Positions 1-6,553 of a DNA stretch of 6,553 nt are shown piece after piece (position 1 is the first letter of the stretch; every line of letters starts with the position of its first letter). The DNA comes from a virus (Duplodnaviria; Heunggongvirae; Uroviricota; Caudoviricetes), in IMG/VR virus record IMGVR_UViG_2695420808_000003; one strand, given 5' to 3'. Made by a program: the position numbers and the translations under genes. The notes beneath the pieces were generated by a model. That model did no database searches and was not told the DNA's origin. It was given only the letters and a program-made list of their open reading frames with translations.

Positions 1-59
1 CCGGAAACAAGTGAGCGTTTCCGGATTCTTACACAGCCACTGGATCGGTCAACTGATCC

Positions 60-1216
60 TTAACTGATCGGCATTACACCACCGGGACGCGGATTCATAT
101 CTTCCAGGTCGCGGCAGTCATTGGAAGAGTAAATTCCCCAGTTGATCCCGGTGGCGTAGGCTTCAAAACGGGACTTCATATCCCCGCGCAGTAACGCCCC
201 GGCGTTAAATTTGGCGTAATAAACGCCCTGCTTACTTTTTCGTACCAGTCCGGTGTTGATCCGCTGTTCGATGCGGGTCAGATACGGCACCAGTGAATAG
301 TTGATAAATCCCAGCCCCAGCTCTTCGATATTGTTGAAGGTGGCGCGATCGGTGTTCTGCACCATGTGCAACGGCACCCGGAACAGACGACAGATTTCTT
401 CCAGCTGAAACTTGCGGGTTTCCAGGAACTGACTGTCCTCGGCGTTCAGCGCCATCGACTTCCAGTCCAGCCCCATTTCCAGAATCATCGGGCGGTGAGC
501 ATTGCCAAGCCCCGTGTGACACTCCTCAAAATCTTTCTTCAGACGCTCGTAAGCATCCGGCGTGAGCTTTTGTTCCGTACGCAACACACCGGATGTCACC
601 GCACCATTACTAAACAACCTGGCACCGTGCTCCTCGGTTGCCGCTGCCAGTGAAATGGCCTCACGCGCATACGCAATGGGATTCAGCCCGACAAGTCCAT
701 CCAGCGTCAGGGTGCGCACATGCCAGATTTCATTCTGGGTCAACACATCCACGGAACCATCCGGAAACGTCACCTGATAAACCGGCTGCCACTGGCTGTT
801 CAGCTTCGGTTCCACACAGCCCGGATCTATCGGAAGAAGCTCCACCACTTCTCCCAGTGCCTTTACCTTGTAGGCGTAAAAATTCCCCCGTAGACACAGG
901 CAGACAATAACCAGCTCCCAGAATTCCTGCGGTGTCATGTAGCCATTAGGTTTTGCCGAAACCAACTTATGCAGTCGTTCATCCACCGCCCGTGTTTTCA
1001 GGGTACCGCTGATTTTGTAGAGACTGCAGGGCAGCATACCAACAGACTCTGCCAGCACCCTGACGCAAGAATAGACCGCCGTCAGGCGCATGGCCCGCTG
1101 GCTACTGATCCGCTTTCCGGTATAGGTGTCGTATGACAGCCCGATAGCATCAGCAGTTCTGCTGGCGTGGTCACCGGCACATCGCTTTTTCGTTGAAATA
1201 ATCCCGAAAAGAACAC
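60..1216 (-). CDS. Phage portal protein, HK97 family; 5' end uncertain or frameshifted
   Basis: Long minus-strand ORF (track 60..1307, 415 aa) carries the portal-core motif I recall from HK97-type portals (…ISSQRAMRLTAVYSCVRVLAESVGMLPCSLYK…) and a C-terminal region ending …RDLEDMNPRPGGVMPIS. It lies directly downstream of the large terminase, as in HK97-like head modules. The track start is a TTG at 1307 that overlaps the better-coding small ORF 1216..1398; the first in-frame ATG is at 1091. A GTG at 1216-1214 with a strong SD (GGAGGT, 5-nt spacer) overlaps the upstream stop (TAGTG) but is in another frame. Confidence 0.85.
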
Positions 1217-1398
1217 TATTTACCTCCGCCGACAGACTGCCGTGTACGGTCGAGATATCGCGCCACCAGCCACGACCAGAACAGGCACAGCGCCCCGGCA
1301 ACAACAAAACCCGCCGGGGGATAAATCAGCCAGGCACCATACGCCAGCAAAAGCGCACCCAGCACGCCCACCAGAGGCGCGAGAATCAGCATGATCAT
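1216..1398 (-). CDS. Small hypothetical membrane protein (60 aa, two predicted transmembrane helices)
   Basis: ATG at 1398 lies 11 nt after the terL stop and is preceded by a GAGGT Shine-Dalgarno (…CTGAGGTAATTATG). Product [60 protein letters not shown] has two hydrophobic helices and a basic C-terminal tail. Codons are E. coli-like (CTG, GCG, GGC rich), unlike the overlapping portal-frame codons. Confidence 0.5.
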
Positions 1399-1409
1399 AA
1401 TTACCTCAG

Positions 1410-3143
1410 TTAAAGCGAGCGGATCCCGTAGGACTCAATGTGGTCAGACAGCGTGTCTTCTTTCTCGTACAGCATGGCTCTGCCAACCGCCATAATCAGC
1501 GCAACTGCACCATCGATTTTGTTTTCCGCCTGCTCTTTGACGGGTTTCACCACATCATCGTTACCCGGCATGTTTTTGCCGACCACGTTGCCGATACACC
1601 AGGTCATGATGGGATTGCCGTCATGATGAAAACGTCCCGATTCAATCGCTGCTTCCAGCTCTTTCATCGGATCGGACATATTGGTGAAGTTCTGGACGAT
1701 AGTGACGGGATTCAGGTCTTCATCAGCAAGGTCATGTGACAACCCGGTCGCCCCGAAGGGGTCGATGGGTGACTCACTGACCGGGCTGATTTTGTTCGCC
1801 GCTTTGGCCTCCTCGAGGATGTAGCGATAATCCACCTCCGCACCATCGGTAACGGTCAGAACGCCCATTTCCACCCATTTCTGAAAGCGTTCGGCTGTCC
1901 GTCGATCTTCATTTTTCTCGACGCTGTACACCGTGTCATACGGTACCCAGAAACGCGGGGCCACACTGTAGTAATGCGTTTTACCGTCAATCTCGCGGGT
2001 ATAAAGTCGCGCCATGCTGTTCATATCCAGCTTACGCGCCAGGTCAAAGGCCAGAATGCACGGCTGCCCCTCGAACTGCTCAAGGGTCAGTGATTTATCC
2101 TCGCAGCTCTGCCAGCTCACCAAGTTGAAATACGCCGAACGCGCCGACACCCAGATATTGAGGTGTTTTGTTTTAAAGACGTTTGCCAGACGGGCGTTAT
2201 TTTTCGCACGCTGCTGCTGACTTAACAAAAATTCGCGATAAACCGACACGCCAATATTTGGATTGGCTTTTTCCAGCACCTGCGGGCCGGTCCAGTCGTC
2301 ACCTTCATCAACGGTATAGATGATCCCGAACAGTTCATCGTTAGGCACCGAGCCGTTGAGCATCTCGATGACTTCCCGCCGCTTGTCGTAGCACGGCCCC
2401 TCAATGTTGTACCCGGCGGTGGTGATGGCCCACATCAGTGGCTGACGTCGCGCCCCCATCCCGGTAAGCATTGTGGTATAAAGCGCATCGGTGGCATGCT
2501 CGTGATATTCATCAACCACGGCACAGTGGGGTGATGAACCATCACCTGGGTTGCCGATCAGCGGTTCAAACCGCGCGCCATCCTCCGGACGGTTCATGTT
2601 TGAGGCGTTAACCTCAATCCCGAACGCTTCCGTCAGCATGGGTGTGCGTTTACACATCAGTCGCGCCGGGCGAAAGACTTCCCACGCCTGTTTCTCTGTC
2701 GTGGCACCGGAATACACTTCCGCGCCAAACTCGTTATCACAGGCAAAACAATACAGGGCAACACCGGCAGAGATTGCTGATTTGCCGTTCTTACGGGGGA
2801 TTTCGGTGTACACCTCCCGGAAGCGGCGCAACCGGGTGCCTTTATTGACCCAGCCAAACGCACAGCAGATCACAAATAGCTGCCACGGCTCCAGCGTGAT
2901 GGGCATCCGTTTGAATGCCCACTCCCCCTTGGTGTGCGGCAACAGCTGAATAAATTTCGCGGCCCGTTCAGCCAGGTCCTTGTCGAAGCGGTAACGAAAC
3001 GACTTACTTTTTTCCGCCATCAGGTCATCAAGATGGCGCTGGCAGGCCTGAATCACAAACTGGCAGGCAACAATCTTTCCGCGCACGACATCCCGGGCAT
3101 ACTGATTTGCAGCATTTACGTTGGGGTAAGATTTCCGGCTCAT
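1410..3143 (-). CDS. Terminase large subunit (HK97 / Terminase_1-like ATPase-nuclease)
   Basis: 577-aa ORF with a Walker A-like motif (…[10 protein letters not shown]…) and a Walker B-like motif (…[10 protein letters not shown]…), followed by a C-terminal nuclease-like region. Its ATG overlaps the terS stop as ATGA (3143-3140), suggesting translational coupling. Sits between the small terminase and the portal. Confidence 0.93.
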
Positions 3144-3634
3144 GATTCGATAATTTTCAGAAACGGGTTAGTGGCTTTCTTCTGCCCCGCCAGGCCAATC
3201 AGACGCTGGCGGCTGCTGGGGTCGAGTCCGAGCATTGCCCCCGTGCTGCTCATCTCGGACTCCTGTTCTTTTTTGGCGGTCAGCTCCGGATTTTTGACCC
3301 TGCCGCCCATTGCACCGGTGATGGTGTTGCCCTGTATGGCAATATTTTTCACGGCACGTCGCCAGAACTCATAGGCCACGCACCACCGCTCAAGTACCGC
3401 CAGGTCAGTCACGCACAGCAGGCCCTGACCGCAGAGTTCTTTGGTTGTCAGTTGCCACATGATCGTGGCGAGAGGGAGATCTTCTTCAGCGAACCACTCT
3501 GGTGGCTCAACACCTTTGATGGGCGTAAAAACAGGTTCATCTTTGTTCAGGGCTCGCTTGCCGGGGTTTCCGGCCAGCGCCTTGCGCGCCGTTGGCTTGG
3601 GGCGACGCCCGGAACGCCCCGCCGTTCCAGCCAT
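3140..3634 (-). CDS. Terminase small subunit (P27-family-like)
   Basis: The N-terminus [27 protein letters not shown]… is the glycine/arginine-rich signature I recall for P27-family small terminases. The track ORF begins at GTG 3643, but the ATG at 3634 has an AGGAG Shine-Dalgarno 8 nt upstream and is the likelier start (164 aa). It lies immediately upstream of, and overlaps, terL. Confidence 0.82.
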
Positions 3635-3673
3635 ATGCGGCACTCCTGGTTAAATTTCATTTTTCGCGGGTAT

Positions 3674-3733
3674 AAAAAAACGATGGGGCGGGCAGTCCGG
3701 AAGACGTCAGGTCACAGGGATTTGCCCCGCCCC
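3674..3733 (-). other. GC-rich imperfect inverted repeat followed by a T7 tract (minus strand); candidate terminator and/or cos-site region between HNH and terS
   Basis: Arms GGGGCGGGCAG (3685-3695) and TGCCCCGCCCC (3723-3733) flank a 27-nt spacer that contains the palindrome GACGTC. On the minus strand the hairpin is followed by ATCG and TTTTTTT (3680-3674). In HK97-like phages cos lies between the HNH gene and terS, so the packaging site is expected in this 120-bp intergenic gap. Confidence 0.35.
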
Positions 3734-3755
3734 TCCCTACAAGTGAGAATAATTA

Positions 3756-4106
3756 TCACCGGATTCGTTCGCGCGCTGTTTTCGCTTTATGGCAGGGCCA
3801 GCACAGACTCTGCAGGTTGCTGTCTGCGTCTGTTCCGCCATGCGCTTTCGGGATGATGTGGTCGACGGTTTTCGCCTCGCTCACCACACCGACACGCAGA
3901 CACAACTGACACAGACCTTTATCGCGCTTCAGAATACGGGCACGAATCACCGTCCATTTTGAGCCATAGCCACGCTGGTGGCGGCTCAGTCCGCGCTGGT
4001 GCTGCACCCAGCCTTCACCGCGATGTTTATCGCAGTAACCCGAACTGTCTGTGGTTGTACCTGCACATCCACGCTTACGGCAGGCACGTGGGATTAGTGA
4101 TGGCAT
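3756..4106 (-). CDS. HNH endonuclease (terminase-associated)
   Basis: 116-aa ORF with paired cysteines (CRKRGCAGTTTDSSGYCDKH…) and the HNH core …DHIIPKAHGGTDADSNLQSLCWPCHKAK…. ATG at 4106 is preceded by GAGGT at 5-nt spacing. Its position directly upstream of terS matches the HK97 gp74-type HNH/terminase arrangement. Confidence 0.9.
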   Translation of the reverse strand: MPSLIPRACRKRGCAGTTTDSSGYCDKHRGEGWVQHQRGLSRHQRGYGSKWTVIRARILKRDKGLCQLCLRVGVVSEAKTVDHIIPKAHGGTDADSNLQSLCWPCHKAKTARERIR

Positions 4107-4148
4107 AAATACCTCATACCCTGCGAAATGTTTACCACGATAAAAAGG

Positions 4149-4613
4149 CTACTTAATGCACTGAGTGCGGATATACTCCTGTGCCCCTTCCAGTTGCATC
4201 TGCATCGTCATCAGCCGCTCTCTGAGGGTGAAATAATCCCGTTCAGCGGTGTCTGCCAGTCGGGGGCTGGTTGCATTATCCACGCCGGAGGCGGTGGTGG
4301 CTTCACGCACTGACTGACAGACTGCTTTGATGTGCAACCGACGACGACCAGCGGCAACATCAGCGCGCAGAGTTTCATTTTCAGCTTTCGCATCAGCTAA
4401 CTCCTTCGTGTATTTAGCATCGAGTGCATTAACATCACGCTGTCTCTGCTGCATGTCAGTAATGGTTGCGTTCGCCAGCTTCAGTTCTCTTGCGTTTTTG
4501 TCGCGCTGCTCTTTGTAGGTAATGGCGTTATCACGGTAATGATTAACAGCCCATGACAGGCAGACGATGATGCAGATAACCAGAGCGGAGATAATCGCGG
4601 TGACTCTGCTCAT
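4149..4613 (-). CDS. Rz: Rz-like i-spanin
   Basis: Product has an N-terminal transmembrane segment ([23 protein letters not shown]) followed by a long charged, coiled-coil-like periplasmic domain. The ATG at 4613 overlaps the endolysin stop as ATGA; the track's GTG at 4625 would add only four residues. Rz1 is nested in the +1 frame. Closely resembles the Rz proteins of lambdoid/DLP12-type prophages as I recall them. Confidence 0.9.
4211..4393 (-). CDS. Rz1: Rz1-like o-spanin (outer-membrane lipoprotein), fully embedded in Rz
   Basis: 60-aa ORF entirely inside Rz in another frame. Signal peptide with lipobox LVVVGC, then a proline-rich stretch (…[21 protein letters not shown]…). This is the classic embedded Rz/Rz1 architecture. 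Confidence 0.85.
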
Positions 4614-5107
4614 TGCTGCCCCCACAAACAGACTTCACGCTCAATCTCACGACGGGTCATCAGCCCTTTCCATTGCTTACCGCCAGCATATGTCCAGCGA
4701 CGTAGCTGGTCACATGCGCCTTTGATATCGCCCTGGTTTATTTTGCGAAGAAGCGTCGATGTTCTGAAATTGCCAGCGCCCACGTTGTAAACGAACGAGT
4801 AAAGAGCGCCGCGCGTTGTTTCCGGTATATCGACTTTGATGTACGGGTTAATTTGTCTGGCGACAGTGGCAAGGTCTTTATTCAGGAGGGCTTTGCATTC
4901 TGCTTCGGTATACGTTTTACCGAGCATGATGTCTTTTCCGGTGTGTCCGTGACATACAGTCCATACACCAATGATATCTTTGTATAGTATGTAGCTGACA
5001 CCTTCCAGACCATCGTTACCACCTGGGCCAGTGATTAACACAGATGCTATAGCAACAGCCCCACCACCAATAGCAGCTGCAACAGCCTTGCGTAATGATG
5101 GCGACAT
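4610..5107 (-). CDS. R: SAR endolysin (T4-lysozyme-like muramidase, phage 21 R-type)
   Basis: 165 aa. N-terminal weakly hydrophobic Gly/Ala-rich SAR domain ([24 protein letters not shown]) followed by the lysozyme catalytic region (…[27 protein letters not shown]…, Glu-Asp-Thr triad pattern). Start ATG overlaps the holin stop (TAATG). Near-identical to phage 21 R as I recall it. Confidence 0.93.
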
Positions 5108-5322
5108 TATTCACCTCTCGCAGCCTTACGCTTGTCTTCTCTTATTTTGAAATACAGATTTGTCAGATAAGTCAGAAGCCCCAGAAGCAGACTTCCCAGC
5201 ACACCAATCGCAGCCCACTGTGATGGACTGACCTGATCCAACCACTGCAAAAACCAGTAGCCGGCACTGCCGGCGGAGGTGCCGTAGGCAATGCCTGTTG
5301 ATATTTTTTCCATCTGATACAT
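5107..5322 (-). CDS. S: Pinholin (phage 21 S-type class II holin) with dual-start motif
   Basis: 71 aa, [71 protein letters not shown]. Two transmembrane segments and a charged C-terminus. Met1 and Met4 could give the antiholin/holin pair. Sits immediately upstream of the SAR endolysin, as in phage 21 (S21-R21-Rz/Rz1). Confidence 0.92.
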
Positions 5323-5351
5323 ATCCCGCCCCCCGACAGACCTGTGCTATC

Positions 5352-5388
5352 GGAAAGAAAAAAGGCCATCAGCAAAACTCTGATGGCC
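5352..5388 (-). terminator. Rho-independent terminator (minus strand) about 30 nt upstream of the holin gene
   Basis: Perfect 9-bp stem GGCCATCAG / CTGATGGCC (5364-5372 and 5380-5388) with a 7-nt loop. On the minus strand it is followed by TTTTTTCTTTCC (5363-5352). Confidence 0.6.
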
Positions 5389-5498
5389 TGAATCACCTTT
5401 ACCAATATTGTATGAAAAAACACGCACGACTAATTGACAATAATTTTCATTTCCATTAAAAAAGATCGCGTAGCATTCTTAATTCATGAGGAACTTTA

Positions 5499-5566
5499 CC
5501 CGCCAGCAATCTGAGTAGCGAAAGCTGTTCATCCCCAATGTTTTTGCTGGCGGGTCCTTTTTTCTA
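5499..5566 (+). terminator. Hairpin plus T-tract on the plus strand (terminator-like, long loop)
   Basis: 11-bp stem CCCGCCAGCAA (5499-5509) / TTGCTGGCGGG (5544-5554) enclosing a 34-nt loop that itself contains a small AGC-GAAA-GCT hairpin. Followed on the plus strand by TCCTTTTTTCT. Confidence 0.35.
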
Positions 5567-5570
5567 CGGT

Positions 5571-5606
5571 CCTCCTCCCCGGAGGGGGGCATTTCATTAT
5601 TTTTCT
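5571..5606 (+). terminator. Second GC-rich hairpin plus T-rich tail on the plus strand (tandem with the previous element)
   Basis: CCTCC…GGAGG / C4-G6 stem within CCTCCTCCCCGGAGGGGGGC (5571-5590), followed by ATTTCATTATTTTTCT. Confidence 0.35.
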
Positions 5607-6001
5607 AATCGTTACTGGTGAGAAGGCGGAAGAAAAAGCCAGTTCTTCGCCCCTAAATAACAGCATGATTCCAGTCCATGCAAAATCTGATTTCCAGCTC
5701 ACACATACCGAGCGCTGTACAAAAACCGCCAGCCAAGGCAGTTAAGAGTGTGTTCCCGGGGTTTGCTTAGAATATTTTGTAAGTTGTCCGAAGAGATATT
5801 TACAACACCAGAATGATGAATCATCAGTCCCCTGCCAGAGGTTCACTACGTAACCTGACCGACAATGCACCATTCTGGTGCTGAAAAAAGAGCACTGGAA
5901 CTGCAACAAAACAACATCACAGAACAGGAGATGGTAAGGAGTCAGACATTCCCACACAATATTGTGTCAGTGCAAATAACAACCTTCGTCTCAAATCTCG
6001 C

Positions 6002-6076
<75 letters not shown>

Positions 6077-6079
6077 ATA

Positions 6080-6155
<76 letters not shown>

Positions 6156-6157
6156 GC

Positions 6158-6234
6158 TGGCCCACCACCGAGGACTCGAACCTCGCACCGTCAACTTAGA
6201 AGGTTGATGCTCTATCCGGATGAGCTAGTGGTGG
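6158..6234 (-). tRNA. tRNA-Arg (anticodon UCU)
   Basis: Reverse complement is 77 nt, CCACCACTAGCTCATCCGGATAGAGCATCAACCTTCTAAGTTGACGGTGCGAGGTTCGAGTCCTCGGTGGTGGGCCA. Perfect 7-bp acceptor stem, D-stem GCTC/GAGC, anticodon stem TCAAC/GTTGA with loop CTTCTAA, T-stem CGAGG/CCTCG, CCA end. Confidence 0.85.
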
Positions 6235-6235
6235 T

Positions 6236-6312
6236 TGGTGGCCCTTGCTGGACTTGAACCAGCGACCTGGCGATTATGAGTCGCTCGCTCTGACCAACTG
6301 AGCTAAAGGGCC
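6236..6312 (-). tRNA. tRNA with anticodon CAU, most likely tRNA-Ile2 (lysidine type; elongator Met not excluded)
   Basis: Reverse complement is 77 nt, GGCCCTTTAGCTCAGTTGGTCAGAGCGAGCGACTCATAATCGCCAGGTCGCTGGTTCAAGTCCAGCAAGGGCCACCA. Anticodon loop CTCATAA, T-loop TTCAAGT, discriminator A, CCA. Backbone resembles ileX/ileZ-type tRNAs as I recall them. Confidence 0.85.
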
Positions 6313-6321
6313 GGAGGCAGA

Positions 6322-6350
6322 ATAATAACCATATGTCATCACATCTGCAA
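6322..6350 (-). promoter_or_regulatory. Candidate sigma70 promoter for the tRNA array
   Basis: On the minus strand: TTGCAG (-35, 6350-6345), a 17-nt spacer, then TATTAT (-10, 6327-6322). This places the transcription start a few nt upstream of the first tRNA 5' end (6312). Confidence 0.35.
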
Positions 6351-6395
6351 ACTCATCTGACCACCAGCACGTTTAACGTCCTGTGCCGTTTTTCA

Positions 6396-6412
6396 GGTAT
6401 AAAAAAACCCGC
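6396..6412 (-). terminator. 3' tail of a probable intrinsic terminator (minus strand), truncated by the gap
   Basis: Minus strand reads …GCGGG-TTTTTTT-ATACC immediately after the N run. The stem partner would lie within or beyond the gap. Confidence 0.25.
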
Positions 6413-6483
6413 NNNNNNNNNNNNNNNNNNNNNNNNNNNNNNNNNNNNNNNNNNNNNNNNNNNNNNNNNNNNNNNNNNNNNNN
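6413..6483. other. Assembly gap (71 N)
   Basis: Uninterrupted run of n characters in the sequence. Confidence 0.99.
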
Positions 6484-6553
6484 TGGCCACCTGAACAGAG
6501 GTGATATGCTCACCTCAGAACAACACAGGTGCTCCAATGAAAAAAAGAAATTT

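Follow-up and report, generated by a model that had tools for sequence, protein, structure and literature searches.

The portal genes of the Stx2e phage phiP27 (L38, NP_543090.1) and of Escherichia coli A36 (WP_240745495.1) lie in the gene order HNH-TerS(P27)-TerL-ymfR/L37-portal, which is also the order in the DNA analysed here (the window, 6,553 nt in full). In portals of the phiP27/A36 type, as in the window, a GTG start overlaps the stop codon of ymfR, and identity reaches 96% over the first 100 aa once the reading frame of the window's portal is repaired. The phiP27 portal is one unbroken frame of 413 aa, followed by protease and major capsid genes; compared with it, the window is without one G after codon 21 and without codons 381-413.

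The same order of HNH, TerS, TerL, ymfR and portal genes recurs in E. coli prophages, in phiP27, in ST64B and in SfI, SfII and SfIV. The head module and the ymfR-portal junction of ST64B, whose portal is Sb4, and of the Shigella serotype-converting phages SfI/SfII/SfIV resemble those of the window at 92-95% DNA identity, and the ST64B junction residues ELADAIGL are identical to those of the repaired portal. Unlike the portal of the window, the portals of ST64B and SfI/SfII/SfIV are intact. Annotation places the portal start at the GTG at the end of ymfR in A36, phiP27 and beeE of the K-12 prophage e14; in ST64B the GTG and its flanks are conserved, but the record annotates the start 3 nt upstream. 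In A36, phiP27 and K-12 BeeE, the N-terminus is read in a single frame as 22 residues, then E or D, then AIGLSYDTYTGK. The more distant portal gp3 of HK97 (PDB 8cez / 8fql) is functional and intact, with approximately 35-40% identity to the repaired portal.

Two reading frames at the portal 5' end

The portal gene of the window lies on the minus strand, and its 5' end is distributed over two frames. The long portal-frame ORF comprises 415 codons (60-1307) if read from a TTG start. Canonical starts in this frame, from 1307 down to 1091, are the TTG codons at 1307, 1304 and 1301 and the ATG at 1091; the window sequence holds no GTG or ATG in the long frame between TTG 1301 and ATG 1091. Another start, the GTG at 1216-1214, shares one base with the TAG stop of a 60-codon membrane protein ORF (ATAGTG). 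This small ORF is ymfR (1216-1398, minus strand), as annotated in A36, phiP27, ST64B and K-12, where it occupies an equal position relative to the portal start; the exact 60-codon product is named YmfR in Shigella. The sequence has a GGAGG ribosome-binding site (1223-1227, minus strand) 6 nt before the portal GTG, and alignment with intact relatives shows no variation in this stretch. The GTG opens a frame of 44 codons that terminates at TGA 1084-1082. A first-pass annotation had reported TTG 1307, ATG 1091, GTG 1216-1214 and TGA 1084-1082, and all four are confirmed in the sequence.

Comparison with relatives resolves the 44-codon frame into two parts. Its first 21 codons (1154-1216, minus strand; MFFSGLFQRKSDVPVTTPAEL) are portal codons 1-21 in the original, pre-deletion frame, and 20 of the 21 are identical to intact portal N-termini (E. 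coli A36, phiP27, K-12 BeeE). In the DNA alignment, one G of CTG-GCx is gone at 1153-1154 (minus strand): relatives read GAGCTGGCGGA at this locus and the window reads GAACTGCTGA, a change of CTGGCG to CTGCTG on the minus strand that amounts to loss of a single G between 1154 and 1153. The alignment with the three intact relatives A36, phiP27 and ST64B is 96% identical and has one gap column, at CTG-GCG. Because one G is missing, the GTG frame holds only codons 1-21, and everything from codon 22 on stands in the other frame; the switch to the second frame falls exactly at portal codon 22. Portal codons 22-380 continue in the shifted frame (77-1153, minus strand; ADAIGLSYDTYTGK ... NPRPGG) and include the complete Pfam Phage_portal core. 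The remainder of the 44-codon ORF, an out-of-frame tail (LMLSGCHTTPIPESGSVASGPCA; 1082-1153, minus strand) that ends at the TGA, results from the deletion: in the other frame, these nucleotides specify the conserved portal residues 22-45.

The two-frame pattern is not a chance arrangement. The portal 5' end is split by a single-G deletion after codon 21, and the 44-codon ORF, composed of 21 true portal codons and 23 out-of-frame ones, is not a gene. At 1089-1091 (minus strand) lies the ATG from which gene callers begin a 343-aa product; it encodes Met43, an internal and conserved residue of the portal, and relatives carry AMRLTAVY internally at this position. No Shine-Dalgarno sequence of its own can be read before ATG 1091, and the TGA of the 44-codon ORF lies 4 nt beyond it, a distance at which some translation of the portal core by reinitiation is conceivable. 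Exact look-up returned no record of the 44-aa product, the 415-aa TTG product is absent from the protein collection, and neither ORF is picked by any gene caller.

Searches of wider sequence sets agree with this placement of the missing base. Among the BLAST matches listed, from 1384 E. coli genomes and 20 phage records, every one spans the query plus exactly one base, and DNA identity to E. coli genomes and phages is 92-96% over 1000-1420. In tblastn, the N-terminal 100 aa of the repaired portal (the 380-aa protein with its frame restored) align as a single colinear piece, at no less than 80% query coverage, with 188 phage records, and distant phages of Vibrio, Burkholderia and Firmicutes align from residue 1-3. 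Within these comparisons, the equivalent of ATG 1091 serves as the start in no close homologue, and the TTG-1307 frame has no colinear counterpart among them; the peptide of the GTG frame shows homology to portal N-termini. The suggestion of the first-pass annotation that a one-base indel had split the portal N-terminus thus holds, and the indel can be specified as the loss of 1 nt that every intact relative retains.

The repaired 380-aa portal matches PF04860 Phage_portal with an E value of 2.5e-107 and a score of 359 bits (cut-off 39.1); the match takes in positions 2-321 of the 321 in the profile and opens at residue 47 of the protein. Homology to the HK97 portal begins farther upstream than Met43, at residue 27: repaired residues 27-380 align with residues 41-398 of the 8cez_A chain (E 4.6e-51). 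Further matches are 9lbn_H ('portal protein gp1'; E 2.9e-50) and the Rhodobacter Rcc01684 portal (6tba/6te8, 'HK97 family'; E 2.2e-19). Both the profile match and the homology to solved HK97-type portals place the sequence in the HK97 portal family (PF04860), and the synteny HNH - P27-family TerS - TerL - YmfR - portal, at high DNA identity, places it in a known prophage module. Its native frame is interrupted by the 1-nt deletion after codon 21 and by an IS4 element that replaces codons 381-413, and of the context TerL-portal-prohead protease-major capsid only the upstream half (TerS, TerL, ymfR) is present, in contrast to A36, phiP27 and ST64B. The gene belongs to the HK97-type portal family as a pseudogene and not as a functional member.

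IS4 truncation and the surrounding prophage remnant

A second lesion, missed by the first-pass annotation, cuts the portal 3' end. Portal homology ends at window position 77, and the junction falls at 76/77, after codon 380. By BLAST, positions 1-76 (minus strand) are the left end of IS4, which takes the place of the final 33 codons of the portal and contributes VMPIS and the stop codon TAA 62-60. Window 76-1 is identical to IS4 ends beside mlc (ME8067) and beside a terminase gene (14EC029), and the flanks of the IS4 copies diverge upstream of TAATGCCGATCAG. The known terminus with its diverging flank is joined by an IS4-type DDE transposase that follows outside the window: in L007, L010 and L014, three of the assemblies that match the region, a product of 374-442 aa with PF13006 Nterm_IS4 and PF01609 DDE_Tnp_1 starts 68 nt past the stop of the portal ORF. 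IS1 had been considered as the identity of the window end and was ruled out by the BLAST match to IS4. The edge of the window falls within IS4, as would be expected of a contig broken at a repeat. Approximately 25 nt flanking the IS end are alike at three independent sites (window 77-100; 1575-1625 in L004 and L005; 92-95% by BLAST), consistent with a target-site preference of IS4.

In complete S. sonnei genomes, the portal::IS4 junction is not followed by any protease, capsid or tail genes; past the IS elements, the sequence is chromosomal, either bamE-recN-nadK-grpE or raiA-pheA-tyrA-aroF. Most of the ten assemblies L006-L015 carry a shortened IS4 transposase (374 aa), then an IS3-family element and bamE-recN-nadK-grpE. 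In L010 and L014, a full IS4 (442 aa) is followed by raiA-pheL-pheA-tyrA-aroF. That two downstream contexts exist points to rearrangement or deletion mediated by IS elements within S. sonnei.

Upstream of the portal, the late genes are better preserved. TerL (1410-3143, minus strand; Pfam TerL_ATPase and TerL_nuclease) is full length at 577 aa, equals ST64B sb2 in length and lies directly upstream in the late operon of the portal. It is preceded on the same strand by a P27-family small terminase (3140-3643), an HNH endonuclease (3756-4106), Rz with embedded Rz1 (4149-4625), a lysozyme (4610-5107) and a holin (5107-5322). All of these genes, from TerL to the holin (1410-5322, minus strand), are full length, though complete genomes have none of the head and tail genes they serve at the locus. 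Four phage-borne tRNA genes (Gly-TCC, Thr-TGT, Arg-TCT and Met-CAT; 6002-6312, minus strand) are clustered upstream of the lysis cassette.

Several features of the window reflect its draft state or strain of origin. Positions 6413-6553 consist of 71 N and then 70 nt that match, at 100% identity, the beginning of an IS3-family transposase element that thousands of E. coli records contain. In closed S. sonnei genomes, the place of 6413-6553 is taken by native phage sequence, downstream of an ORF6N-domain gene. The window is either a draft contig of approximately 6.4 kb scaffolded between IS copies or derived from a strain with an extra IS insertion. Compared with five S. sonnei assemblies, of which three are complete chromosomes, it differs at only two places: position 4986 (A versus G), inside the lysozyme gene, and an intergenic run at approximately 5721-5725 that reads A5 in the window versus A6 in 10 of 10 genomes. 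The shorter run may be a draft homopolymer error or a strain variant. One assembly, L010 (CP044191.1), has approximately 78 differences confined to Rz/Rz1 in the equivalent of window 4182-4340 and is near-identical elsewhere, which suggests a recombination tract.

Origin of the missing base and competing readings

The first-pass annotation had proposed that the missing base might be a draft-assembly error, and the source of the window gives this idea some footing. The window is a draft with a run of 71 N (6413-6483), both of its ends lie within IS copies, and its A run at approximately 5725 is A5 where closed genomes have A6; a sequencing or assembly error in such a scaffold could conceal a gene that is truly intact at its 5' end. 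Against this, the 201 nt around the deletion are the same as in the window in 10 of 10 independent assemblies (L006-L015), closed chromosomes among them, and BLAST gives 99.97% identity over window 1-6412 to five of the ten. L008, L012 and L015 carry extra indels elsewhere in the region, yet they match the window at the deletion site. The site itself is a run of two Gs, with no long homopolymer. The exact 343-aa product from ATG 1091 occurs in 1695 blocks of a public assembly collection, 46 of which have contigs over 1 Mb, and no fewer than 1000 contigs carry it under the name "portal protein [Shigella sonnei]"; every member of its 90% cluster that has a name is from S. sonnei. Since S. sonnei is clonal, these many copies count as one mutational event and not as independent confirmations of its cause. 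For the error to stand, a systematic error would have to recur at one non-homopolymer site in every assembly, which is formally possible and very unlikely. The same deletion in ten assemblies, at a site that is not a homopolymer, therefore marks a real mutation, fixed in the clonal S. sonnei lineage, and a draft error has next to no chance of being the explanation. A degenerate pattern across the deletion, which allowed the extra base to be present or missing, had no match in a collection of species-representative genomes; Shigella is likely folded into E. coli there, under a representative without the prophage. Among published strains, GCA_002442535.1 is S. sonnei CFSAN030807 (PMC11594029), CP022457.1 is S. 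sonnei strain 2015C-3566 (PMC6456863), and CP037997 is FC1653, a clinical Shigella isolate (PMC6836418).

Other readings assign a product to the two frames. The first-pass annotation had raised a coupled upstream ORF; on this view, the 44-codon GTG ORF is a real small gene translated together with a short portal from ATG 1091. The strong Shine-Dalgarno sequence ahead of the GTG and a TGA only 4 nt past the ATG would permit termination-reinitiation, and the Pfam core starts only at residue 47. This proposal falls on the composition of the ORF, a conserved portal N-terminus of 21 codons continued by 23 codons that cover portal codons 22-45 out of frame. All close relatives and the 188 phage records run colinearly across the junction in one frame, HK97 homology reaches upstream of Met43 and the 44-aa product is without a record; coupling of this kind is exceedingly improbable. 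Equally hard to credit is a programmed -1 ribosomal frameshift or transcriptional slippage that joins the frames into a full-length portal. A -1 shift near CTG-CTG would restore the conserved sequence, the open frames overlap over 135 nt, and the junction peptide of such a full-length portal would be PAEL-ADAIGL, ...TTPAELADAIGLSYDTYTGK. No X_XXY_YYZ slippery heptamer exists in any frame in 1082-1216, however, and the longest homopolymer there is A5. The two-frame layout is not conserved, all relatives examined being in one frame, which argues that recoding is not ancestral, and the partners of the portal (protease and capsid) are missing from the locus. A further reading holds that the truncated 343-aa portal from ATG 1091 is expressed and kept for a benefit to the host, such as blocking the assembly of incoming HK97-like phages. 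The product retains the complete Pfam portal core, its sequence is invariant on at least 1000 contigs, and the neighbouring TerL, TerS, HNH and lysis genes are still full length. The clonality of S. sonnei explains that invariance, however, ATG 1091 has no Shine-Dalgarno sequence of its own, and the combination of IS4 truncation and frameshift is typical of neutral decay; retention for the host is a slim prospect. A speculative version, to be regarded with similar doubt, has the 343-aa core made by termination-reinitiation after the 44-codon ORF and retained in S. sonnei as a domesticated fragment, alongside the intact genes for terminase, HNH and lysis. If this were true, the core might act as a dominant-negative portal subunit that poisons the assembly of superinfecting HK97-like phages.

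Portal decay compared with known prophages

The portal is almost certainly a lineage-fixed pseudogene, frameshifted and truncated by IS4, in a decayed phiP27/ST64B-like prophage of S. sonnei. A gene disrupted twice, in a locus that has lost its morphogenesis module, is best understood as an inherited pseudogene. The possibility of genuine inactivation in a cryptic prophage, which the first-pass annotation had also named, is borne out by a deletion that is fixed in S. sonnei genomes and by the absence of head and tail genes.

The window represents the late-gene end of a prophage remnant of the phiP27/ST64B type, with an HK97-like head module, in S. sonnei. The ancestral portal began at the GTG that overlaps the ymfR stop (1216-1214), and one G was lost at 1154/1153. 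A ribosome that initiates at the true start would read 21 genuine codons and 23 nonsense codons before TGA 1084-1082 ends translation; the other 359 codons of the portal lie in the second frame, where the ATG of the internal Met43 at 1091 is their sole start. IS4 also inserted after codon 380, and complete genomes have lost the rest of the morphogenesis module. On the evidence of the sequence, a functional portal is probably not made, and the prophage fragment, which lacks head, tail and probably integration functions, is predicted to be non-inducible. The lesions presumably accumulated under relaxed selection.

The locus is a matter of ordinary prophage decay, and public S. sonnei records already contain the portal under that label. 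The benefit of the present analysis lies mainly in annotation hygiene, with little beyond it. The correct call is one portal pseudogene at 77-1216, frameshifted and truncated by IS4; a 343-aa "portal protein", a 415-aa TTG ORF and a separate 44-codon gene are wrong calls. To our knowledge, frameshifted and IS-disrupted prophage genes are the rule in Shigella, and the locus adds another case of the IS- and indel-driven prophage decay that is typical of the genus. By itself, the prophage fragment cannot make particles.

The K-12 cryptic prophage e14 is the closest precedent, and a direct one, for decay of this portal gene in a cryptic prophage. Its segment ymfN-ymfR-beeE is the module of the window, likewise in a decayed prophage. 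Like the ancestral portal of the window, beeE starts at the ymfR-overlapping GTG, and it encodes an N-terminal portal fragment of 157 aa in frame (L016, 2550-3205). The two genes differ in the site and kind of damage: the e14 portal keeps its N-terminus in frame and is truncated after approximately 140 codons by fusion or deletion, whereas the portal of the window is frameshifted at its N-terminus and cut at its 3' end by IS4.
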